The notes below the pieces were generated by a model. The model was not told the origin of the DNA. It searched no databases and was given only the letters and a program-made list of their open reading frames with translations. Positions 2,359 through 59,663 of a DNA stretch of 64,000 bases are shown here, piece after piece; position 1 is the first letter of the stretch; every line of letters begins with the position of its first letter. The stretch is taken from contig DASTFB010000070.1 of NCBI GenBank assembly GCA_035709005.1, positions 5,223-69,222 on the forward strand, in the 5' to 3' direction. Source of the DNA: Candidatus Methylomirabilota bacterium (GTDB lineage Bacteria; Methylomirabilota; Methylomirabilia; Rokubacteriales; CSP1-6). The translations under genes and the position numbers were made by a program.

Positions 2359-4299
2359 TTACCGGCCCTTCGTCCCCCACAGATCCCGGGCCAGCCAGTC
2401 CAGCCCGAGGTCCTTCAGAGTCTGGGGAAGCGGCCTCCCGGTCTTGCGGTCGTAGCCGACCTTGCCGTACCACGTCTCGAGCATCTTCTCCCACTGCTCC
2501 CCGATCGCCTGGCCCTTGGCCGGGCCGTCGTGGGGAGTGGAGCCGTAGCGCACGGACGGGCACTCCTTGTCGACGCCGATGCCGCAGCGCAGGCGGACCG
2601 CTCGGAAGATCGCGGCCGTGCGACGACCGAAGCGCATCGCCTCGTCGGGCGTGTACGGCCAGCCGGTCGCCGCGCTGAGCGCGCGGGCGAGGTTCTCCAG
2701 CCGCGTACGCCCGGTGAAGATACAGATGCCCAGAGAGTCCTCGAAGTGGCGGCGGCCCCGGATGCCGGCGACCTGGGTGGCCACCTCTTCGCCGTTGAAG
2801 GGATTGATGCGCGTAGGCAGGCCCAGCTCGGCCACGTGCACGGGCACGCCGGACTCCAGCGTGCCGGTGGAGCCCGTGCAGGTGTCGAGCATCTCGTCCC
2901 AGCGCCCACGGTGGTCGTGCCCGCGCGGGGAGGCGCCCTGCGCGGTATAGATGGCGGCGTCCCGGGCCGCGCCGCCCAACCGCTCGGACGCCACCTTCAC
3001 GCCCTCGGCCAGCACGTCGCCAAAGCCCTCACGCTTGACCAGCATTTGTAAGAGTTGGTTCGCCCCCTTGATATCGCCCCACTTCAGCTCGAAGCCCAGC
3101 TGATCCCTGGTGATGAGCCCGCGCTCCTGGCACTCCATCACCCAGCCGCACAGCCAGCCGAACTCGTTCACGTCGACGCAGGCCCGGTCGAGCTGGGTGT
3201 TGAGCCAGGAGATGCCCTGCTGATCGGTGGCCCCGATAGTCCAGCCCGCCCCCGACCAGCCCTCGTACTCCGGCTCGTCCACGATGGCGCCCTTGAAGTC
3301 GCCGCTGCGGATGACCTGCATGTGGCAGTGATGCATGCCGCAGGCGTTGCACTGGTGGCCGCGGTGATCGAAGCCCTCGCGCAGCTTGGGCGCCTCCCAC
3401 CGACTCAGGTCGTCATAGGGCACGTTGGTGGTGTAGTTCTTGATCGGCAGCACGCCGAGCTTCCCCAGGTTCACGACGCCGGGCAGCGTCCCGTACTCGT
3501 ACAGCGACTTGGCCGACGGGTCGGTCTTGAGGTCGTGGGCGATGTCGTCGGCGGCCTGCACCACGCCGCGATAGTCGGCGGCCCGCAGGGCCCGCGTGCC
3601 TTTCACGATGGCCACGGCCCGGAGGCGCTTGACGCCCATGACGGCGCCGCAGCCGTTCTTGGAGGCCACGTGGCCGTAGTCGCCGTGGATGGCGGCGAAG
3701 CGCACGAGTTTCTCGCCGGCCACGCCGGAGGTGTACACGGACAGCTGGTGGCCGGTGAGCCCCAGCATGCGGCCCAGCGCGTCCTGGGTCTCCCAGGTGT
3801 CCAGGCCCAGCAGCGGCTTGGCGTCCCGCAGCTCGATCACCTCGTCGTCGATGTAGAGGTAGACCCAGTCCTTGGACTGGCCCTGGATCACGATGGCGTC
3901 GTAACCGCAGTACTTGAGGTTGGTGCCGAAGAAGCCGTTGGCCTGAGTCGAGGTGGGCCCGTTCGTCATGGCTCCGATGGTCACGACGGTGAGGCCGCCC
4001 GTCCCCCACACCGGCAGCCCGGCCAGCGGGCCCGTGGCCAGGACGAGGCGATTGTCGGGATGGTCCCACGACACGTTGCCCTTGCCGCCTCTGGTGCCGG
4101 TTTCCCGGTAGAGGATCAGCGCGCCCAGGCCGGCGCCGCCCAGCCAGTCGCGCATCTCCTGAGGACTCCAGGGCTCGGCCCAGCACTTCTTCTTGGTCAG
4201 ATCGACCCGGAGGAGCTGGCCGGCGTAGGCGCCGGGCAGGCGGGTCGTGGATGCTGCCGTCTTGCTCCGTGGTGCCGCGCTCGTCGTCATCGGGGTCAC
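2359..4299 (-). CDS. aor: tungsten-containing aldehyde:ferredoxin oxidoreductase (AOR family)
   Basis: 646 aa. N-terminus ...AYAGQLLRVDLTKKK... matches the AOR N-terminal domain and the length fits full-length AOR; start overlaps the upstream FAD-oxidoreductase stop (ATGA). Confidence 0.9.
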   Translation of the reverse strand: MTPMTTSAAPRSKTAASTTRLPGAYAGQLLRVDLTKKKCWAEPWSPQEMRDWLGGAGLGALILYRETGTRGGKGNVSWDHPDNRLVLATGPLAGLPVWGTGGLTVVTIGAMTNGPTSTQANGFFGTNLKYCGYDAIVIQGQSKDWVYLYIDDEVIELRDAKPLLGLDTWETQDALGRMLGLTGHQLSVYTSGVAGEKLVRFAAIHGDYGHVASKNGCGAVMGVKRLRAVAIVKGTRALRAADYRGVVQAADDIAHDLKTDPSAKSLYEYGTLPGVVNLGKLGVLPIKNYTTNVPYDDLSRWEAPKLREGFDHRGHQCNACGMHHCHMQVIRSGDFKGAIVDEPEYEGWSGAGWTIGATDQQGISWLNTQLDRACVDVNEFGWLCGWVMECQERGLITRDQLGFELKWGDIKGANQLLQMLVKREGFGDVLAEGVKVASERLGGAARDAAIYTAQGASPRGHDHRGRWDEMLDTCTGSTGTLESGVPVHVAELGLPTRINPFNGEEVATQVAGIRGRRHFEDSLGICIFTGRTRLENLARALSAATGWPYTPDEAMRFGRRTAAIFRAVRLRCGIGVDKECPSVRYGSTPHDGPAKGQAIGEQWEKMLETWYGKVGYDRKTGRPLPQTLKDLGLDWLARDLWGTKGR

Positions 4300-5621
4300 A
4301 CCGCCACCGGGGTGGTGCCGGGCGCCCTGGACGGGCGTCCAAGCACGGTTTCGTCGAGCAGCCGTCGCGTCGTCCCGGACGCGATGTAGGCCGACTTGAT
4401 GTCGAAGGGGTTACGCCGGAGCGCGTCCTTGAAGTGGCCGAGCGCCGTCTGAGTCTGCACCAGGCCCTTGAGCATGCCCACGTCGTTCGTGGTCCAGATG
4501 TCGCGGGACGGCCCCAGGATGATGGCGCCCACGAGGTGATCGCCACGCCACAGCAGCTTGCGGTAGGCCGGCCGGTCCGGCCTGAGCCCGACCATCGCCT
4601 CGGCGCCCTCGTCGTCCCAGGCACCGAAGGACGCGATGTCGAGGTGGCAGACCTCGACGATGTTCATGAGCAGGCTGCCCGGGTAGCGGACGTCCTTGCC
4701 CGCCATGTTGGCGCCGGCCACGCGCCCGTGCTCCTGCGCCGTCGGCTCGATGGCGTGCAGCGCCGGCGCCCCGGACACGCGATCGGGTCCCTCGGCCACG
4801 TCGCCGGCGGCGTAGACATTGGGCACGCTGGCCCGGAGATGGTCATCGACCAGGATGCCCTGCTCGATCTTGATGCCGGAATCCTTGAGCCAGTCGAGGT
4901 TCGTCCGGATCCCCGTGGCCATGATCACGACGTCGGCCTGGATGTCGGGGCCCCTGGCGAAGCGCAGCCGCTTGCGGCCCTTCGCCTCCTCGATCCGCGT
5001 CAACGTGGCGCCGGCGCGGACGGTGACGCCGTGCCGGCGCAGCCAGCCCTCCACGAGCTCGGCGCCCTTGGCGTCGACCATGCGAGGCAGGATGCGCGGG
5101 GCGATCTCCACGATCGTCAGTGTGGCGCCCAGGGCCAGGATGGAGTTGAGGATGGTGAAGGCGATGAATCCGGCTCCCACCATGACCACGTGGCTGCCCG
5201 GCCGGATGTCGGCGATCAGGGCCCGGCACTGGTCCAGCGTCCAGAACGAGTGGACGCCGGGCAGGTCGGCGCCCGGCACCGGGGCCTTCACCGGCGACGA
5301 GCCCGTGGCGATCAGGCAGTCGTCATACTCCACGCTGGTGCCGTCGTCCAGGGTGCACGCGTTGGCCGCCGTGCCGAGCTTGACGGCGCGCCGGCCCAGG
5401 TGCGTCTTCACGCCCCACTGGGCCAGCACGGCCGCGGCCGCCGTGAAGACATGGGACTCGGCGATGGAGCGGTCCAGATAGTACGGGAGCACCATGCGGG
5501 AGTAGGGCTTCTCGACGCTGACCAGCGTGATCTCCGAGCGCTCGCGTTCTTCCTCGCGGATCGTTCGCATCGCGTTCATGCCGGCCGTGCCGCCGCCGAT
5601 GATCAGATGACGCGCCGGCAT
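4296..5621 (-). CDS. FAD-dependent pyridine nucleotide-disulfide oxidoreductase (AOR electron-transfer subunit, AorC-like)
   Basis: Start MPARHLIIGGGTAGMNA is a dinucleotide-binding motif; a second Rossmann block VVMVGAGFIAF follows and AAGDVAEG lies near the C-terminus. Its ATG overlaps the ferredoxin stop at 5621. Confidence 0.85.
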   Translation of the reverse strand: MPARHLIIGGGTAGMNAMRTIREEERERSEITLVSVEKPYSRMVLPYYLDRSIAESHVFTAAAAVLAQWGVKTHLGRRAVKLGTAANACTLDDGTSVEYDDCLIATGSSPVKAPVPGADLPGVHSFWTLDQCRALIADIRPGSHVVMVGAGFIAFTILNSILALGATLTIVEIAPRILPRMVDAKGAELVEGWLRRHGVTVRAGATLTRIEEAKGRKRLRFARGPDIQADVVIMATGIRTNLDWLKDSGIKIEQGILVDDHLRASVPNVYAAGDVAEGPDRVSGAPALHAIEPTAQEHGRVAGANMAGKDVRYPGSLLMNIVEVCHLDIASFGAWDDEGAEAMVGLRPDRPAYRKLLWRGDHLVGAIILGPSRDIWTTNDVGMLKGLVQTQTALGHFKDALRRNPFDIKSAYIASGTTRRLLDETVLGRPSRAPGTTPVAV

Positions 5622-6091
5622 CAGCGCGCCTCCGCCAGGACGCGGCCCATCCGCTCGGCGGCGAAGTCGCCGAGCCAGTCGGCCGTGGGCACGTCCTCGT
5701 AGAGGATGGCCGCGGTGGGGCAGGCGTGGACGCAGGCGGGGTCGCCGCCGCAGAGGTTGCACTTGAAGGCTTTCCGGGTGCCGGGGTCGTAGAACATGGT
5801 GCCGTAGGGGCAGGCGATCGTGCACAGCTTGCATCCAACGCAGAGGTCGTCCACGACGTCCTTCGCCCCGGCGGCGTTGATCGTGATGGCGCCGACCGGA
5901 CACGCCGTCATGCACCAGCCCTCGGCGCACTGCGTGCAAGTGTACGGCGCGTAGGAGGTGTGGCGTTCGAACGGGGACACGCGGATGACCGACTTGGCCG
6001 GCTGGTACGTCCCGGTTTGCATGTACGAGCACGCCAGTTCGCAGCGGAGGCAGCCGGTGCAGCGCTCCGGGATGATTCGAAGGACGCTCAT
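5621..6091 (-). CDS. polyferredoxin with four [4Fe-4S] cluster motifs (AorA-like)
   Basis: 156 aa with four CxxCxxC...CP cysteine blocks (CTGCLRCELAC, CTQCAEGWCMTACP, CVGCKLCTIACP, CNLCGGDPACVHACP). Confidence 0.85.
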   Translation of the reverse strand: MSVLRIIPERCTGCLRCELACSYMQTGTYQPAKSVIRVSPFERHTSYAPYTCTQCAEGWCMTACPVGAITINAAGAKDVVDDLCVGCKLCTIACPYGTMFYDPGTRKAFKCNLCGGDPACVHACPTAAILYEDVPTADWLGDFAAERMGRVLAEAR

Positions 6092-6405
6092 CGCTTCTTT
6101 CGGGCCTTCCCCTTGCCGCCGCCCTCCAGCCGCTCGATGAACTCGTCGAGGGGGATGGCGGCCATCGTCATGCCGGCGGCCCCGCCCCGCGCGCCCACTT
6201 CGACGGACACACGCGAGATGGTGGCGTTGTCCGCCGCCTCGATGACGGTGACGAAATCGTAGGGGCCGAGGACGGCGTACTGGGCCAGCACCCGCGCGCC
6301 CATACGCTCGACGTCGGCGTTGACCTTGCGAATCCAGCCGGGACGCTCCCGCACGACCTTGCGGCCCGACTCCGAGAGCGTGCTCAGCATGATGTAGAGG
6401 CTCAC
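6088..6405 (-). CDS. GYD domain protein
   Basis: VSLYIMLSTLSESGRKVV... is the GYD-family N-terminus; GTG start at 6405 with AAGGAG 7 nt upstream; stop overlaps the ferredoxin start. Confidence 0.65.
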   Translation of the reverse strand: MSLYIMLSTLSESGRKVVRERPGWIRKVNADVERMGARVLAQYAVLGPYDFVTVIEAADNATISRVSVEVGARGGAAGMTMAAIPLDEFIERLEGGGKGKARKKR

Positions 6406-6455
6406 GGCTGGATCTCCTTTCGCAGCGGCCGGTAGTATAACACCGTCCCCTCCGA

Positions 6456-7358
6456 TCACACGGGCGCGTCTTGGCTCGAGGCGCGCAGGAAGTCGTAGAC
6501 CGACGAAAAGTCCTTGCGCCCGTAGCCGTGGGAGGAGGCCAGCCGCAGCAGCAGCTGGGCGGCCGGCGCCACGGCCACCGGCACCCGCAGCTCGCGGGCG
6601 GCGTTGACGGCCAGGCCCAGGTCCTTGGCCATGAGATCCGTCATGAATCCCGGAGCGTAATCGCGGTTGGCCGCCGCCTGCTCCACCATGCCTGGCACGG
6701 GATGGCCGTGCTCCATCACCCAGGTGTTCCCCGACGACCTGGCGATGACCTGGGTCAGGATGCGCGGATCGACGCCGAACCCTTCCGCGATGCGGAACGC
6801 CTCGCTCACCGCCACCATGGCCACGCCGGCGATGAGATTGTTGCAGAGCTTGGCCACCTCGCCGGAGCCCACCGCGCCGACGTGGATGATCGTGCTGCCC
6901 ATGGCGGCCAGGGCCGGGCGGGCCTCCTCGAGATCCATGGGATCGCCACCGACCATGATGGTCAGCGTGCCGGCCACCGCCCGCGGGACCGCGCCCGAGA
7001 CCGGCGCATCGAGGAACCGCACGCCGGCCGAGCGCAGCCGGACGGCCACCCGGCGGGACACCGCGGGATCGATCGTCGACATGTCCACGCAGAGCCGGCC
7101 GCGCGCCACGCCCTCGAGCACGCCGGCGGGACCCAGGTAGGCCGCCTCCACGTGCGAGGACGACGGCAGCATCGTCACGACGAGCTGTCCCTGCTTGGCC
7201 GCTTCGGCCGCCGAGCCCGCCGCGGTGGCGCCCAGCGCGACGGCGGCTTGCAGCGCCGCGGGCGCCACGTCGTAGGCGGTGACCGAGAAGCCGCGGGCCA
7301 GCAGGTTCTTGACCATCGGCTGCCCCATGGTGCCGGTCCCGATGAAGCCGATCTTCAT
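6456..7358 (-). CDS. NAD(P)-dependent oxidoreductase, HIBADH family (second paralogue)
   Basis: MKIGFIGTGTMGQPMVKNL, DAPVSGAVP, GSGEVAKLCNN; AGGAGG Shine-Dalgarno (SD) site upstream of the ATG. Confidence 0.85.
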   Translation of the reverse strand: MKIGFIGTGTMGQPMVKNLLARGFSVTAYDVAPAALQAAVALGATAAGSAAEAAKQGQLVVTMLPSSSHVEAAYLGPAGVLEGVARGRLCVDMSTIDPAVSRRVAVRLRSAGVRFLDAPVSGAVPRAVAGTLTIMVGGDPMDLEEARPALAAMGSTIIHVGAVGSGEVAKLCNNLIAGVAMVAVSEAFRIAEGFGVDPRILTQVIARSSGNTWVMEHGHPVPGMVEQAAANRDYAPGFMTDLMAKDLGLAVNAARELRVPVAVAPAAQLLLRLASSHGYGRKDFSSVYDFLRASSQDAPV

Positions 7359-7474
7359 GACGGCCTCCTTTTGTAGCGGGGTCCGCGAGCCCGGTTCGAC
7401 GCGTGGGTGGCCTGCCCGAGGTGCGTGTGGCTCCGTCTCGTCGTGTCAGCCGTTCGCGTCACTCTGCCCCCCTG

Positions 7475-7879
7475 TTATGGCTTCAGGACCATCTGGGTCT
7501 GGATCGTGATTGACAGCAAGCGCCCGGCTCCGTCCGTGACGCGCGTCTGCCACACCATCGTGGTGCGGCCCCGGTGCAGCGGCGTGCTCTCCGCCCGCAC
7601 CACGCCGTGTTGCCCGGCGGCGAAGAAGTTGGTCTTGGACTCCAGGGTCGCCGTCGACGCCCCCGGCGGCAGATTGAGCATGGTGGCGGTGGCCCCCGCG
7701 ACATCGGCGAGGGTCATCAGGGTGCCCCCGTGCAGCCGCCCGCCCACCGTGCGCAGCTCGTCGCGGATGGCGAGCTCGGCCACCACCCGGTCGGGCAGCG
7801 CTTCCACGAAGCGGATTCCGAGCAGCTCGCTCAGCGTGCCCCGGTGCCGTTCGTCGAGCGCCGTCGGATCGATCGTCAC
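7475..7879 (-). CDS. PaaI-family (hotdog fold) acyl-CoA thioesterase
   Basis: ...LSELLGIRFVEALPDRVVAELAIRDEL...GGRLHGGTLMTLADVAGA... is the 4HBT/PaaI signature; GTG start at 7879 preceded by GAGGAGGG. Confidence 0.75.
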   Translation of the reverse strand: MTIDPTALDERHRGTLSELLGIRFVEALPDRVVAELAIRDELRTVGGRLHGGTLMTLADVAGATATMLNLPPGASTATLESKTNFFAAGQHGVVRAESTPLHRGRTTMVWQTRVTDGAGRLLSITIQTQMVLKP

Positions 7880-8037
7880 GGTTCCCTCCTCACCGGAACC
7901 CCGGCCTGTAATGCTCCGGTGCTCGCCGGCGTCGTGCCGAGCCACTGCTCATCGGCGTCGCCCGTATGGTCATCGTCGGCGCGCTGCTCCTGCTCGCCGC
8001 CCGCACCTTGAATTGGACGAGTTGGACTCGCCCGTGT

Positions 8038-8140
8038 CACACCTCGCGCGAAATGGGGGGGTCTGGAGGGGGCGCGTCTCGTGCCTCCTCCAGGCTAAGA
8101 ATCAGGTCTGAAGGGGGCCTCTGCCCCCTCTGGCTCGATC
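8038..8140. repeat. family-A GC-rich palindromic repeat element (two GGAGGGGGC-N-GCCCCCTCC-like hairpins plus cacctcgcgcgaaatgg arm)
   Basis: Near-identical element recurs at 17553-17660 and, inverted, at 33650-33720. Here it overlaps and supplies the last ~15 codons and stop of the 8095-9153 gene. Confidence 0.8.
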
Positions 8141-9153
8141 GGTCGCGAGACGGCCCGGCTGAAGCAGCAGTTGGGGACCACGCTGGAGTGCTTGCCCGGC
8201 CCGCCGGCGACCACCACCAGCACGTCCTCCGGCCCGGGGACACGCGGCGGCCGGACATCGTCGTCGCGGAGAGCCATCATCCACGGGGGCCAGTCCTGGG
8301 CCCCCCACATGCCCCCGAGCTTCAGCGTCTTGAGTGGCAGCCGCGCGTGCTCGTACACGAAACGCTGGACGTCGGCTCGTCCCAGGCCCTCGGCGGCGAT
8401 GGTCTGCGCGTGCTCGGGACCCAGGACGACGAGCAGCTGGCTCTGGGCCAGGTACCAGCCCACGTTGGAACCCAGCGTGACGGCGGTGTGGGCGACGGTG
8501 GCCAGGATGCCCGCCGCCGTCGTCGACACGTGGTCGTTGATGTTGTGGGGAGCCTCACCACCATACACCGTGACGACGTCGCCGGCGGCCAACGGTTCCC
8601 ACGGCGAGGCAGCCTCGTTCTCGGCGATGCAGTAACTGAACTTGGCGGGACTGCCCTGGGTCGCCATGTCGTGACGACCCGGCCAGGCGCCACCGACGTT
8701 CATGAGGATCAGGCGGATGGCCCGTCCGATCGTCGCGTTGGCCCGAAAGCCCGGCCCGAAGCAACCGCTGCCGGCGTGCAGGCCGATCTCGCGCGCGTAG
8801 GGTCCGTTGACCACGAGCAGGGGCGCCACCGGATGCGTGGTGGCCTGCACGCCGTAGAGATTGAAGGCCGGATCCAGCATGGCCTCCACGGCGGCCACGA
8901 TGACGGGCAGGTGCTCGGGCCGGCACCCGGCCATCACCGCGTTGACGGCGAGCGCCTGCAGGGTGGCTTCATGCCAGAGCGGCGGCATGGGACCCAATGA
9001 GCGGTCGGCGGGAGCGCCGCCCAGCATGGCCCGCACGCGGTCCTCGGTGGGAGGCACGATAGGCAGCCCATCGCACCAGCCCCGCTCGACGAACGCCTCC
9101 AGCAGCGCCTCGGGCGTGTCGTCGACGTCGAGCGTGGCCGCCGACGGCGCCAT
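8095..9153 (-). CDS. conserved partner protein of the UGSC selenoprotein (uncharacterised; homologous to the C-terminal 450 aa of the fused gene at 53337-55007)
   Basis: 352 aa. Blocks ERGWCDGLPIVPPTEDRVRAMLGG / VNAVMAGCRPEHLPVIVAAV / GSPAKFSYCIAENEAASPWEP align with SRGWSDGFPLVAPTERAVAAMLGG / VNSVMAGCAPEHLPLLIAAV / GSPLKYSLCCAENERESPWEP in the second locus; its ATG overlaps the selenoprotein stop. Confidence 0.7.
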   Translation of the reverse strand: MAPSAATLDVDDTPEALLEAFVERGWCDGLPIVPPTEDRVRAMLGGAPADRSLGPMPPLWHEATLQALAVNAVMAGCRPEHLPVIVAAVEAMLDPAFNLYGVQATTHPVAPLLVVNGPYAREIGLHAGSGCFGPGFRANATIGRAIRLILMNVGGAWPGRHDMATQGSPAKFSYCIAENEAASPWEPLAAGDVVTVYGGEAPHNINDHVSTTAAGILATVAHTAVTLGSNVGWYLAQSQLLVVLGPEHAQTIAAEGLGRADVQRFVYEHARLPLKTLKLGGMWGAQDWPPWMMALRDDDVRPPRVPGPEDVLVVVAGGPGKHSSVVPNCCFSRAVSRPIEPEGAEAPFRPDS

Positions 9154-9683
9154 CAGCGCTCACCGAGCAGGCTGAGCAGCTGCTCCACGGCCTGCTGAGC
9201 GCGGCGGACGATGGCCTCGGGCCGTTCGCCGCCCAGCGGGTGCTCCACGACCAGCAGGGGCAGGCCGGCCACGCCCCGGGCGGCGAGCTGGCGGACGGCG
9301 ACCTCCTGAAACGCGGTGGTGGCGATCAGCGCGGACGCGGTTCCGGCCCTGGCCAGCTCGAGGGCGTCGTGGAGACTCCACGACGTGCAGGACCCTCAGT
9401 CCGCGGAGCCGGCGAAGACGACATCGCAGGCTTTGGCCAGCTCGACCACCAGCTCCGCGGGCGCCGGCGACGAGCAGTTCGCCTTGCGCCGGTGGACGAC
9501 GGCCTTGACGCCGTGCCGCTCGCGCAGGAGGCGACCGAGCTCCGTGACCAGGCGGTCGAAGTTCGGCTTGGTGTTGTCGAGAAAGCCCACGGTGAGGTTG
9601 CCGAAGTCGCCGGGCAGCGGAGGCACGCTCACCCGTTCGCTCGCTTCGACCCCCACTGGACTCAACACCCGGATGCGTGGCAT
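9153..9683 (-). CDS. UGSC-motif selenoprotein (in-frame UGA at 9396-9398 read as selenocysteine; ~176 aa)
   Basis: The ORF-track ORF 9396-9713 stops at a UGA. Reading through gives ...VVFAGSAD-U-GSCTSWSLHDALELARAG...LLGER*, with no further stop for 80 codons until a TGA at 9153-9155 that overlaps the next ATG. AGGAGG SD before the ATG at 9683. Same architecture as the fused paralogue. Confidence 0.7.
9365..9385 (-). promoter_or_regulatory. SECIS-like stem-loop ~10 nt 3' of the UGA (RNA CGUCGUGG-AGUCU-CCACGACG)
   Basis: Perfect 8-bp stem (extendable to 10). Position and size match bacterial SECIS elements; the stem is identical at the second locus while the loop differs. Confidence 0.55.
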
Positions 9684-9717
9684 GGGCACCTCCTGGCGTC
9701 CTGATGAGCGCAACGCG

Positions 9718-9939
9718 TCATTGTACTCCGCGGCGAGGCAGCCCGGTGGAGCGCGCCAGCAGCCGTCCCAGCGTGACGTGCAGCTCCGTGAGGATGGAGC
9801 GCTTGACCCGGACAGTGACGGCTTCCACCGGCTCGGCGCTGCCCACGCGATGGATCACCAGGGTCCCCGTGAACTCGTCGGCCCGCTCGTCCACCGCGGC
9901 CAGGCCCCGCAGCGTGAGGACTTCCCACGTCTCGCTCAT
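9718..9939 (-). CDS. hypothetical small protein (73 aa) immediately upstream of the selenoprotein gene
   Basis: ORF MSETWEVLTLRGLAAVDERADEFTGTLVIHRV... ends 35 nt before the selenoprotein start. Weak SD and no recognisable family; may be non-coding. Confidence 0.2.
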   Translation of the reverse strand: MSETWEVLTLRGLAAVDERADEFTGTLVIHRVGSAEPVEAVTVRVKRSILTELHVTLGRLLARSTGLPRRGVQ

Positions 9940-56261: not shown

Positions 56262-59200
56262 ATGGCCGACCTTCGCGCGGCGCTCGAGCAGCGCATTCTC
56301 GTCCTCGACGGGGCCATGGGCACGATGCTCCAGGGCCGCGGGTTGGGGGCGGCCGACTTCGGCGGCGAAGGCTACGAAGGCTGCAACGAATATCTGAATC
56401 TCACCCGCCCGGACGTCATTCGCGCGATCCACGCCGCCTACCTCGAAGCCGGCGCCGACGTCGTCTCCACCAACACCTTCGGCTGCGCGCCCTGGGTGCT
56501 GGGCGAGTACGGGCTGGCCGAGCGCGTCTGGGACATCACCCGGGCCGGGGCGGTGCTGGCCCGCGAGGCGGCCGGCCGTGGCTTCGTCGTGGGGGCCATG
56601 GGGCCGTCGACCCGGTCCATCTCGGTCACCCGCAACGTCACGCTCGACGAGGTGCGTGAGGCCTACGCCCTGCAGGCCCGCGCCCTCATCGACGGCGGCG
56701 TTGATGCGCTCCTGCTCGAGACCCAGCAGGACACGCTCAACGTCAAGGCCGCCGCCCTCGGGCTGGGCGAGGCCATGCGCGAGGCCGGCGTGGAGCTACC
56801 CGTGCTGGTGAGCGCGACCATCGAGCCGACCGGCACCATGCTGGCGGGCCAGGGCGTGGAGGCGCTCTACGTGGCCCTGCAGCACCTGGGCCTGTTCTGC
56901 ATCGGGCTGAACTGCGCCACGGGGCCCGAGTTCATGACCGACCACCTGCGCACGCTCTCCCAGATGGCCACCTGCTTCGTGAGCGTGTACCCGAACGCCG
57001 GCCTGCCCGACGAGCGCGGACAGTACGGCGAGACGCCGGAGAGCCTGGCCTTCAAGATGCGGCGCTTCGTCGACGAGGGCTGGGTCAACCTGGTGGGCGG
57101 CTGCTGCGGCACGACCCCCGCCCACATCCGGGCGCTGGCCGGGCTCGTCCGCGACCGGCCGCCCCGCGTGCCGGCCGCCCGCGAGGTCCGCGCGGTGAGC
57201 GGCATCGAGGTGCTCTATCCCACCGAGGACAACCGGCCGATCTTCGTGGGGGAGCGGACCAACGTCATCGGCTCCCGGCGCTTCAAGGAGCTCATCGTCG
57301 CCGACCGTGTCGACGAGGCGGCCGAGATCGGCCGGGCCCAGGTGCGCGGTGGCGCCCAGGTGCTCGACGTCTGCCTGGCCAACCCCGACCGCGACGAGGC
57401 GGCCGACATGGACCGCTTCATGGCGGCCCTCACCCGCATGGTGAAGGTCCCGCTGATGATCGACTCCACCGACGCCGCCGTGCTCGAGCTGGCCCTCAAG
57501 CGCTGCCAGGGCAAGGCCATCGTCAACTCCATCAACCTGGAGGACGGCGAGGAGCGCTTCGCGCGGGTCTGTCCCCTGCTGCGGCGCTACGGCGCCGCCG
57601 TCGTGGTGGGCTGCATCGACGAGGACAAGCAGCAGGGTATGGCCGTCACCGCGGCTCGCAAGCTGGCCATCGCGGAGCGCTCCCACGCGTTGCTCTGCCA
57701 GAAGTACGGCCTGGCCGCCCGGGACCTGATCTTCGACCCTCTCGTCTTCCCCGTGGGCACGGGCGACCAGAACTACGTGGGCTCGGCCCAGCAGACCATC
57801 GAGGGCGTGCGTCTCATCCGGGAGCGGTTCCCCGAGTGCGCCACCATTCTGGGGATCTCCAACGTCTCGTTCGGTTTGCCCCCGGCCGGGCGCGAGGTCC
57901 TCAACGCCGTCTTCCTCTACCACTGCACCAAGGCCGGGCTCGACTACGCCATCGTCAACACCGAGCGGCTCGAGCGCTACGCCTCCATCCCCGAGGAGGA
58001 GCGGCGGCTCGCCGAGGACCTGCTGTTCAACCGGGGCGCCGATCCGGTGGCAGCGTTCGCCGCGCACTTCCGGGGACGCCAGAAGGCCGCGCCGGTGAAG
58101 TCCGCGCTGAGCCTGGACGAGCGTCTGGCCCGCTACATCGTCGAGGGCAGCCGGGACGGGCTCATCGAGGACCTCGAGGCCAAGCGCGCGGAGGCCGCGC
58201 CCCTGGACATCATCAACGGCCCCCTGATGCGGGGCATGGACGAGGTCGGCCGCCTCTTCAACGACAACCAGCTCATCGTGGCCGAAGTGCTCCAGTCGGC
58301 CGAGGCCATGAAGGCCGCCGTGGCCTACCTCGAGCGGTTCATGGACAAGGCGGAGACGGCCACCCGGGGCGTGTTCCTGTTGGCCACCGTGAAGGGCGAC
58401 GTGCACGACATCGGCAAGAACCTGGTCGAGATCATCCTGGCCAACAACGGCTATCGGGTGATCAACCTGGGCATCAAGGTGCCGCCCGAGACCTTGATCG
58501 CGGCCTGCCACGAGCACAAGCCCGACGCCATCGGGCTCTCCGGGCTGCTGGTGAAATCAGCGCAGCAGATGGTGGTGACCGCCCAGGATTTCCGGGCCGC
58601 CGGCATCGACATCCCCTTGTTCGTGGGCGGCGCCGCCCTCACCCGGAAGTTCACGGCCACCCGCATCGCGCCCGAGCACTCGGGCCTGACCCTCTACGCG
58701 AAGGACGCGATGGAGGGGCTCGATCTGGCCAACCAGCTCTTCGCCGCCCCGACGCGGGAGGCTCTGATCGCGCGTGTCCGCCGCGAGCAGGCAGCGCTGG
58801 GAGGCGACGGGTCCTCCGATACGACGACCGCGGCCCCGGCCACGGCCGCGCCGGCGCGCTCGGCGGTGGAGCCGGTGGAGCCGCCGGTGCCGCCCGACCT
58901 GGAGCTCCACGTCCTGCGCGACGTGCCGCTCGCTCACATCTTCCCGTACCTGAACCTCCAGATGCTCTACGGCAAGCACCTGGGGCTGCGGGGCCTGGTG
59001 TCGCGGCTGCTGCAGGCCGGGGACGCCAAGGCCCGCGAGATCCACCAGGTGGTGGAGGCGCTCCAGCAGGAAGCCATCCGCGACCGGCTCCTGGTGGCCC
59101 ACGGCCTCTACCGCTGGTTCCGGGCCCGCGCGGCCGGCGACGCGGTCCTGATCTTCGACGAGGCCGGGCGCGAGCTGGCGCGCTTCGACTTTCCCCGCCA

Positions 59201-59663
59201 GCCCGACGGCGAGCGGCTGTGCCTGGCCGACTACGTGCGAGACGACCGCGACGACTACCTGGCCGCCTTCGCCGTCACCTGCGGCAGCGGCGTGCGCGAG
59301 CGGGCCGAGACGCTCAAGAGCCGCGGCGAATACCTCAAGTCGCACGCCCTGCAGGCCCTGGCCATCGAGAGCGCGGAGGCCTTGGCCGAGATGCTCCACG
59401 CCCGCCTGCGCACGTTGTGGGGGTTCCCCGATCCCGCCGACGTGACCGTCGCCGACAAGCTCAAGGGCCAGTACCGCGGCATCCGCGTGTCGTTCGGCTA
59501 CCCCGCGTGTCCCAACCTGGCCGACCAGGCCACGCTGTGGAGCCTGCTCGAGCCCGAGCAGATCGGGATCAGCCTCACCGAGGGCTTCATGATGGACCCC
59601 GAGGCGTCGGTCTCGGCCCTCGTCTTCCACCACCCTCGGGCCCGGTACTTCAAGGCCGGCTGA
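56262..59663 (+). CDS. metH: cobalamin-dependent methionine synthase
   Basis: Homocysteine-binding N-terminus (LVLDGAMGTML), pterin-binding, B12-binding DVHDIGKNLV, AdoMet reactivation domain; 1133 aa. The ORF-track 5' extension from 55551 is spurious. Confidence 0.9.
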   Translation: MADLRAALEQRILVLDGAMGTMLQGRGLGAADFGGEGYEGCNEYLNLTRPDVIRAIHAAYLEAGADVVSTNTFGCAPWVLGEYGLAERVWDITRAGAVLAREAAGRGFVVGAMGPSTRSISVTRNVTLDEVREAYALQARALIDGGVDALLLETQQDTLNVKAAALGLGEAMREAGVELPVLVSATIEPTGTMLAGQGVEALYVALQHLGLFCIGLNCATGPEFMTDHLRTLSQMATCFVSVYPNAGLPDERGQYGETPESLAFKMRRFVDEGWVNLVGGCCGTTPAHIRALAGLVRDRPPRVPAAREVRAVSGIEVLYPTEDNRPIFVGERTNVIGSRRFKELIVADRVDEAAEIGRAQVRGGAQVLDVCLANPDRDEAADMDRFMAALTRMVKVPLMIDSTDAAVLELALKRCQGKAIVNSINLEDGEERFARVCPLLRRYGAAVVVGCIDEDKQQGMAVTAARKLAIAERSHALLCQKYGLAARDLIFDPLVFPVGTGDQNYVGSAQQTIEGVRLIRERFPECATILGISNVSFGLPPAGREVLNAVFLYHCTKAGLDYAIVNTERLERYASIPEEERRLAEDLLFNRGADPVAAFAAHFRGRQKAAPVKSALSLDERLARYIVEGSRDGLIEDLEAKRAEAAPLDIINGPLMRGMDEVGRLFNDNQLIVAEVLQSAEAMKAAVAYLERFMDKAETATRGVFLLATVKGDVHDIGKNLVEIILANNGYRVINLGIKVPPETLIAACHEHKPDAIGLSGLLVKSAQQMVVTAQDFRAAGIDIPLFVGGAALTRKFTATRIAPEHSGLTLYAKDAMEGLDLANQLFAAPTREALIARVRREQAALGGDGSSDTTTAAPATAAPARSAVEPVEPPVPPDLELHVLRDVPLAHIFPYLNLQMLYGKHLGLRGLVSRLLQAGDAKAREIHQVVEALQQEAIRDRLLVAHGLYRWFRARAAGDAVLIFDEAGRELARFDFPRQPDGERLCLADYVRDDRDDYLAAFAVTCGSGVRERAETLKSRGEYLKSHALQALAIESAEALAEMLHARLRTLWGFPDPADVTVADKLKGQYRGIRVSFGYPACPNLADQATLWSLLEPEQIGISLTEGFMMDPEASVSALVFHHPRARYFKAG

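Follow-up and report, generated by a model that had tools for sequence, protein, structure and literature searches.

The window analysed here is a 64,000-nt stretch of contig DASTFB010000070.1 (positions 5,223 to 69,222; assembly GCA_035709005.1) from a Candidatus Methylomirabilota bacterium, and it carries two loci, both on the minus strand, in which a small selenocysteine (Sec)-containing module of the UGSC family is joined to a larger protein module of a family without a name, hereafter the partner. At locus 1 the two modules are separate genes. The UGSC-family selenoprotein is translated from a 176-codon open reading frame (ORF; 9683-9153) that starts at ATG 9683, stops at 9155-9153 and holds a single in-frame TGA (Sec96, 9398-9396) in the context ...VVFAGSAD-U-GSCTSWSLHD. 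Its stop codon has base 9153 in common with the ATG of the 352-amino-acid (aa) partner (9153-8095), the two forming a TGATG junction; the conserved partner residues named below (D28 to H248) are numbered as in this 352-aa protein. At locus 2 a single ORF (55007-53337) translates into a fusion protein of 556 aa, laid out as a UGSC domain (residues ~1-176), a linker of ~30 aa and a partner domain (residues ~206-556), with its in-frame TGA (Sec98, 54716-54714) in the context ...TTND-U-GSCTSWGVHD. The motif D-U-G-S-C-T-S-W stands at residue 96 in locus 1 and at residue 98 in locus 2. According to tblastn comparisons, the two loci are paralogous, with homology far above chance for both the Sec modules (33.5% identity over 176 aa, E = 1.5e-19) and the partner modules (41% identity over 291 aa, E = 6e-57).

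A preliminary description of this DNA had reported a split pair with a TGATG junction at locus 1 and a single polypeptide at locus 2, a hotdog-fold thioesterase after locus 1, and a family III CoA-transferase 36 nt before locus 2. Since the ORFs, the junction, the neighbours and the homology were all verified, that description is accurate save for small coordinate details: the end of the region at position 9713 is that of a mechanical TTG-started ORF, the true start of the UGSC gene being ATG 9683.

The small module is not new. The Sec protein of locus 1 matches the UGSC family model PF24696 at E = 2e-46 (158.6 bits, cutoff 25) and passes the NF041046 model at the borderline (125.7 bits, cutoff 125), and PF24696 annotation is precomputed on relatives of the locus 2 fusion; the module is therefore the UGSC family described by Zhang and Gladyshev (2007/2008). 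Lists of selenoproteins have included UGSC since 2007, without a known function (PMC1976440). It was among the most abundant selenoprotein families of the Global Ocean Sampling data, with 255 Sec against 21 Cys sequences; the 2008 paper on those data also describes a "UGSC/Unknown_1" fusion, in which the added domain of unknown function has conserved Cys residues (PMC2398784, Fig. S1A). A 2026 review still counts UGSC among the selenoproteins with largely uncharacterized functions (PMC13188914). Locus 2, a UGSC domain fused to a conserved Cys-containing domain, corresponds to this published description. "Unknown_1" may be identical with the partner family; in the UGSC-containing proteins found among partner-seeded database matches the fused domain is this partner. 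NCBI and UniRef already apply the name "UGSC family (seleno)protein" to full-length Cys-form fusions with 53-57% identity to the window fusion, for example those from Phytohabitans suffuscus, Roseixanthobacter liquoris and Paraburkholderia caffeinilytica; the haloarchaeon Natrialba asiatica is a further cultured host of a Cys-only full-length version. Because the small half is named and the fusion was noted in 2008, the window genes are not a new kind in themselves. Whereas UGSC is a named family, the partner domain has neither a family model nor a name, and our search of the UGSC literature found no mention of near-obligate pairing, of a split-gene form, of the reverse order or of three-module variants. 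The pair as a system is uncharacterised, and the window genes are new members of this family pair.

Selenocysteine decoding in UGSC genes

Both in-frame UGAs are followed by a hairpin of the selenocysteine insertion sequence (SECIS) type. The locus 1 hairpin, GUCGUGGA-GUC-UCCACGAC (9384-9366, minus strand), folds with 8 of 8 pairs, and its counterpart at locus 2 is GUCGUGGG-GUG-UCCACGAC (54702-54684, minus strand); each has an 8-bp stem and a GUN loop and begins 11 nt past the UGA. We compared 69 distinct homologous sequences carrying TGA with 70 carrying TGC or TGT at the same codon. Sec forms keep on average 7.4 of the 8 stem pairs against 5.4 in Cys forms, and 7.9 against 6.0 within the TSW..HD peptide context. 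The loop reads GU(N), with AGU as Ser codon, in Sec forms, and GC(G/C), with AGC as Ser codon, in Cys forms. Compensatory synonymous changes occur in the stem, for instance GUCAUGGA/UCCAUGAC and AUCGUGGA/UCCACGAU. The RNAfold z-scores of the 66-nt stretches that follow the two UGAs are unremarkable (−1.1 and −0.4); the hairpin is convincing because of the comparison of Sec with Cys forms across loci and not because of single-sequence folding. A bacterial SECIS element would be expected to behave in this way, and on this comparative ground we read both UGAs as selenocysteine codons. Searches of the window at gathering thresholds gave no Rfam family, and a tRNA scan found no gene and therefore no tRNA-Sec in the window.

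Public annotation deals with these codons in a systematically erroneous way, by shortening Sec fusions and cutting UGSC genes in two. In database records the Sec fusion is annotated as a 448-aa protein that begins after the UGA (54683-53337 in the window), a miscall common to the 120 closest database relatives among the matches listed. Stand-alone Sec-UGSC genes are annotated as two halves of ~78-99 aa each (loci L166-L171).

Pairing of UGSC with one partner family

Scanning one genome per species with the partner profile gave at least 600 matches, the best 80 loci of which constitute our census. These belong to Methylomirabilota, Dehalococcoidia and other Chloroflexota, Alpha-, Beta- and Gammaproteobacteria, Binatia, Actinomycetota, Acidobacteriota, Bacillota and Haloarchaea. 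Of the 80 loci, 75 carry a UGSC domain on the partner's strand, nearly always directly adjoining the partner, mostly upstream of it and, in one Dehalococcoidia clade, downstream; about 16 of the 80 are in-frame fusions. The UGSC codon is TGA at most of the resolved sites and a Cys codon at 4. The reverse census, based on a UGSC-profile scan of metagenome contigs, covered 80 loci that were Cys forms only by virtue of the search pattern. The partner adjoins UGSC in all 74 informative loci, the other 6 having less than 600 nt of flanking sequence on one side. Co-occurrence is therefore at least 94% in both directions, across bacterial and archaeal phyla. In addition, tandem double-partner proteins are found among the database representatives, as are reverse-order fusions whose sequences are cut short at the Sec codon.

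Whether the pair is fused or split changes even among close orthologues. The locus most closely related to locus 1 (L001, with an 80% identical partner) is an in-frame fusion with a linker of ~25 aa, and overlapping stop/start junctions recur, with three other loci (L002, L004 and L009) split in the same way as the window's. The preliminary description had argued from the split and fused forms, as a Rosetta stone, that the two modules act together. Two-way pairing, the occurrence of both gene orders, the fusions and the switching of state support this conclusion well, and we are highly confident that UGSC and the partner constitute one enzyme. On the best reading, locus 1 of the window produces this enzyme as two polypeptides whose translation is coupled, and locus 2 produces it as a single chain. 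In favour of independent modules whose adjacency and fusion are incidental, 5 of the 80 partner genes have no UGSC in the locus DNA (one of them is cut by a contig end). The two-way co-occurrence, the independent fusions in both orders, the coupled junctions and the compact fusion model described below all speak against such independence, which the census effectively refutes and to which we give almost no credence.

Several loci carry more than one copy of a module. Three Sec UGSC-partner fusions stand head to tail in a Chloroflexi metagenome-assembled genome (MAG) (L054, JACPQD010000044.1, ~3329-8708), and in five loci (L005, L047, L056, L072 and L078) a single UGSC gene precedes two partner paralogues, of which the downstream one is shortened in L047, L072 and L078. 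Such arrays and duplicate partners suggest hetero-oligomers or substrate-specific paralogues.

Partner structure and the putative redox centre

An exhaustive HMMER search returned 5,225 partner clusters (50% identity) at E ≤ 1e-3, and 1,319 at E ≤ 1e-30. Public records label every partner homologue "hypothetical protein", including the window's own copy (HET9490206.1, a Methylomirabilota MAG entry). Neither a single partner sequence nor a 74-sequence profile matched Pfam, NCBIfam or the PDB sequences, and scanning the 74 members singly against Pfam at E ≤ 10 yielded nothing consistent. From the 74-sequence alignment AlphaFold2 gave a confident partner model, with a mean predicted local distance difference test (pLDDT) score of 92.7 and a predicted template-modelling (pTM) score of 0.92. 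Foldseek found nothing among solved structures at E ≤ 1e-3 for this model. Its top 15 hits all belong to the 4Fe-4S fumarate hydratase class, with E between 2e-3 and 2.5e-2, TM-scores of 0.22-0.28 and probabilities of at most 0.5. Two programs ranked this family first, which we treat as a below-threshold lead and not as a result; neither structure comparison nor profile search linked the partner significantly to the catalytic alpha domain of class I fumarate hydratase. The partner is thus a very large family that is missing from Pfam and NCBIfam and has no convincing structural match in the PDB, in agreement with the earlier statement that it could not be placed in a known family.

We also modelled a full-length Cys-form fusion (P0459) that is 58% identical to the window fusion. 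AlphaFold2 predicts one compact body (pLDDT 95.8, pTM 0.94) in which the UGSC module would be a small alpha/beta domain of flavodoxin/Rossmann-like type, with the U/C-x-x-C motif between a strand and the start of a helix, so that the reactive residue sits at the helix N-terminus. While the window proteins match the UGSC family models and carry U-G-S-C, this predicted fold differs from the thioredoxin-like fold of the literature: structure comparison found no match of the UGSC domain to the thioredoxin fold that had been proposed in 2008.

Residues that hardly vary among the 187 partner domains are D28 (in DGLP), N71, C77 (in MAGC), T106, N139, R144, C175 (in CxAENE), E178, W185 and H248. All three Cys-containing blocks pointed out in the preliminary description are present, and two of them hold family-wide: C77 is kept in 176 of 179 domains and C175 in 161 of 177. 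The third, C131 (GSGC), is found in just 63 of 178. None of the partner Cys positions is ever UGA in the aligned partner domains. The UGSC redox centre is, judging from the alignments, evolutionarily plastic. Nearly every family variant has at least three Cys/Sec residues among the UGSC loop, C77 and C175, and which three are retained varies by clade. We also looked at a co-loss of partner C270 with the UGSC Cys (2 of 20 against 0 of 69; Fisher test by hand, ~0.05), which is too weak and was not used.

Partner domains are also fused to other redox modules, namely a Pyr_redox_2 domain resembling thioredoxin reductase (TrxR; P0269), a domain resembling the catalytic subunit of ferredoxin:thioredoxin reductase (FTR), and an AhpC/TSA-like domain. 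A Sec-UGSC gene directly adjoins all three of these fusions, so the extra modules supplement UGSC and do not substitute for it. In 6 of 160 loci the immediate neighbour of the pair is a TrxR-like gene with a CxxC motif (CAHC), and in Roseovarius sp. THAF8 the partner, UGSC and trxB genes form an operon. The recurrence of thiol-disulfide modules is consistent with a selenol/thiol redox role of the pair, as are the placement of the U/C-x-x-C motif and the strong preference for Sec over Cys, and such a role is plausible.

Our preferred interpretation, to which we assign a probability of roughly 0.55, is that the pair is a two-component selenol/thiol oxidoreductase. UGSC would be a dedicated small redox carrier whose Sec-Gly-Ser-Cys centre, at the helix N-terminus, would cycle between a selenenylsulfide and a selenol/thiol. 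It would be reduced by a system of the thioredoxin-reductase type, dedicated in some genomes and presumably a general one here, and would pass two electrons to the partner by selenol/thiol-disulfide exchange or act jointly with C77 and C175. The partner would be the substrate-binding catalytic subunit that converts a small substrate, and its putative active site would comprise Cys77 and Cys175 together with Asp28, Asn139, Arg144, Glu178 and His248. The analysis itself establishes the gene anatomy, the decoding of Sec, the near-obligate pairing and the repeated fusion to redox modules; in which direction electrons flow, what part the partner cysteines play in catalysis and to which class the substrate belongs are inferred. 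The arrangement recalls relays of TrxR, thioredoxin and target, in that a small U/CxxC carrier stands beside a larger Cys-containing enzyme, and a TrxR-like flavoprotein with CxxC is found beside or fused with the pair in some genomes. It differs from them in that the UGSC carrier is not of thioredoxin fold and serves one target, to which it is even fused.

Several observations weigh against this interpretation. Among 89 fusions, about 9 have no Cys or Sec in the UGSC redox loop yet keep the partner Cys, and in these the small domain cannot be the redox donor. One fusion clade has lost Sec/Cys at the U position, its loop reading D-S/A-G-VT (P0315, P0335, P0373, P0296, P0365, P0390, P0393 and others), and many of its members have a Cys two residues earlier (LCDSG); another fusion clade retains just the first Cys (CG[TS]S). 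A dedicated reductase gene adjoins the pair in just a few per cent of loci. The five partner genes with no UGSC in the locus DNA count in the same direction, as does the fact that our literature search found no functional study for any UGSC member. Finally, the only solved structures that the partner resembles, and weakly so, are 4Fe-4S fumarate hydratases, a group of non-redox hydro-lyases.

This last point underlies the main rival explanation, according to which the partner would be a distant relative of 4Fe-4S hydro-lyases of the class I fumarate hydratase, L-serine dehydratase or tartrate dehydratase type. Cys77, Cys175 and the UGSC Sec/Cys would then ligate a cluster or metal, and the pair would dehydrate or isomerise organic acids without redox chemistry. 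Besides the weak fold matches, the number of retained Cys/Sec residues fits this proposal, two coming from the partner while the third could be supplied by the UGSC loop. So do the organic-acid genes that neighbour the pair in some loci (TctC, tripartite ATP-independent periplasmic (TRAP) transporters, aconitase X, enolase, HMG-CoA lyase and the isocitrate lyase family). 4Fe-4S hydro-lyases also occur in two-subunit and in fused forms. Conversely, the profile retrieved no such family from the PDB sequences or Pfam, and the structural scores are sub-threshold. The retained Cys trio differs by clade, the TrxR-, FTR- and AhpC-like fusions point to disulfide chemistry, and we know of no precedent for Sec as a ligand of an Fe-S cluster. 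On balance we regard a hydro-lyase as unlikely.

Gene neighbourhoods and candidate substrates

In the window, the partner gene of locus 1 is followed after a 149-nt gap by a hotdog-fold thioesterase of the PaaI/4HBT type (7945-7475, minus strand; TIGR00369 and PF03061 matches), then by a gene of the 3-hydroxyisobutyrate dehydrogenase type (7358-6456, minus strand). At locus 2 the gene upstream of the fusion encodes a CoA-transferase of family III (CaiB/BaiF; 56243-55044, minus strand; PF02515, E = 3e-135). From these neighbours it had been suggested, as speculation, that the pair acts on acyl-CoA or thioester substrates, as a reductase of the glycine/proline-reductase kind. We surveyed the neighbours of the 80 census loci by ORF clustering, which gave antisense artefacts in high-GC loci, so that later searches used hidden Markov models (HMMs) on six-frame translations; a further HMM census of close neighbours covered genes on the same strand within 1.5 kb of the pair in 160 loci.

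Beyond the pair itself, no gene family exceeds ~19% of the first 80 loci. By ORF clustering, a luciferase-like monooxygenase and a TctC binding protein each occur in 15 of the 80 loci (16 for TctC in the later HMM census). They are followed by a short-chain dehydrogenase/reductase (SDR), an enoyl-CoA hydratase, CoA-transferase III and an NHL-repeat protein (11 each), a flavin mononucleotide (FMN)-dependent dehydrogenase (9), and a TrxR-like flavoprotein (8; 6 in the later HMM census). An acyl-CoA dehydrogenase is near the pair in some loci. CoA-transferase III is a close neighbour in 5 of the 160 loci, and a hotdog thioesterase like the window's stands beside the pair in none of ~165, the closest relative (L001) included.

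These figures bear directly on the thioester proposal. In its favour, the thioesterase and CoA-transferase of the window are real, the CoA-transferase III and enoyl-CoA hydratase counts and the occasional acyl-CoA dehydrogenase point the same way, and a small Sec protein with a larger subunit resembles, by analogy, GrdA with proteins B/C. The glycine, sarcosine and betaine reductases and the D-proline reductase combine a Sec centre (UxxC/CxxU) with a larger substrate-specific subunit and are recharged by the thioredoxin system. UGSC shares with them, as an analogy only, a Sec-x-x-Cys motif and a strong preference for Sec over Cys. In contrast, no sequence relationship was found: 20 UGSC members searched against Pfam at E ≤ 10 match PF24696 alone and therefore neither GRDA nor GRDB, which leaves the suggested kinship with glycine and proline reductases unsupported. 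Likewise, no pyruvoyl-subunit-like family is found among the recurrent neighbour clusters, although no PrdA/GrdE profile search was made, and the UGSC pair is found mostly in aerobic or facultative hosts, among them Methylomirabilota, Betaproteobacteria, haloarchaea and Dehalococcoidia. As the thioesterase and CoA-transferase neighbours are not conserved, the acyl-CoA inference finds no support, and a glycine/proline-reductase-like enzyme acting on thioesters appears slightly less probable still than a hydro-lyase.

A further alternative is that UGSC serves sulfur or selenium trafficking and not the reduction of a metabolite, a persulfide or perselenide being carried on its Sec/Cys and handed to the partner. 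This would agree with the predicted alpha/beta fold and the position of the reactive residue, which several sulfur-relay proteins also place at a helix N-terminus. It would also agree with one neighbourhood, that of the Paracoccus ferrooxidans plasmid pFER4, where selB is ~3 kb away from the locus (L163) and genes for DsrE, TusA and a cysteine desulfurase are no more than 4 kb away. That context comes from a single locus and does not recur in the census, and we consider trafficking improbable.

In cultured organisms the pair is found in contexts of mixed organic-acid metabolism (CoA-transferase, enoyl-CoA hydratase, HMG-CoA lyase, aconitase X with DUF126, enolase), accompanied by TRAP, TctC and major facilitator superfamily (MFS) transporters; CoA-related genes are seen at the Natrinema, Roseovarius and Sporomusa loci, and a gene of the isocitrate lyase family is also among the organic-acid neighbours. 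The fusion gene adjoins aconitase X and its DUF126 small subunit on Sporomusa termitida pSPTER (L162) and on Vibrio europaeus pVEu (L164), where an enolase-family gene follows directly. These aconitase X neighbours may hint at the substrate class, and the mixed neighbourhoods as a whole are a loose indication that the putative oxidoreductase acts on small organic acids or on derivatives of these.

Other genes of the window were noted around the two loci. Immediately 5′ of the UGSC gene of locus 1, a 73-aa ORF (MSETWEVLTLRGLAAVDERADEF...; 9718-9939, minus strand) has its stop 35 nt ahead of the UGSC start and a counterpart at the same position in the two closest loci (71% identity in L001, 65% in L002). 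A Pfam search with this ORF gave no match, and it is probably a genuine small gene of this lineage's operon. On the 3′ side, a four-gene run (2359-6459, minus strand) encodes a GYD-domain protein (6459-6088), a 4Fe-4S ferredoxin (6091-5621), a Pyr_redox_2 flavoprotein with a rubredoxin-reductase C-terminal domain (about 5630-4296) and an aldehyde:ferredoxin oxidoreductase (AFOR; 4299-2359), and reads as a tungsten/molybdenum module of the aldehyde oxidoreductase (AOR) type. We considered the Pyr_redox_2 gene (4296-5630) as a dedicated UGSC reductase and rejected it, given its grouping with the AFOR and ferredoxin genes and its rubredoxin-reductase C-terminal domain. Divergent from the CoA-transferase gene of locus 2 lies a long ORF (~56263-59663, plus strand) that starts MADLRAALEQRILVLDGAMGT... 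and, by eye, looks like a cobalamin-dependent methionine synthase (MetH).

UGSC has been an orphan since 2007 although it ranked with the top families among the Global Ocean Sampling selenoproteins. Our analysis makes it conceivable, at a little under even odds, that UGSC and its partner represent a distinct and widespread class of selenoenzymes, in which a catalytic subunit whose fold has no convincing counterpart among solved structures would carry out a thiol- or selenol-driven reaction so far assigned to no enzyme family. It also brings to light a large partner family, of more than 5,000 clusters at 50% identity, that Pfam and NCBIfam lack. The pairing with one partner, the recruitment of TrxR, FTR and AhpC modules and the existence of Cys-only versions in culture make UGSC function experimentally tractable: as the pairing is near-obligate and Cys forms occur in cultured organisms, the function of this selenoprotein family is directly testable.

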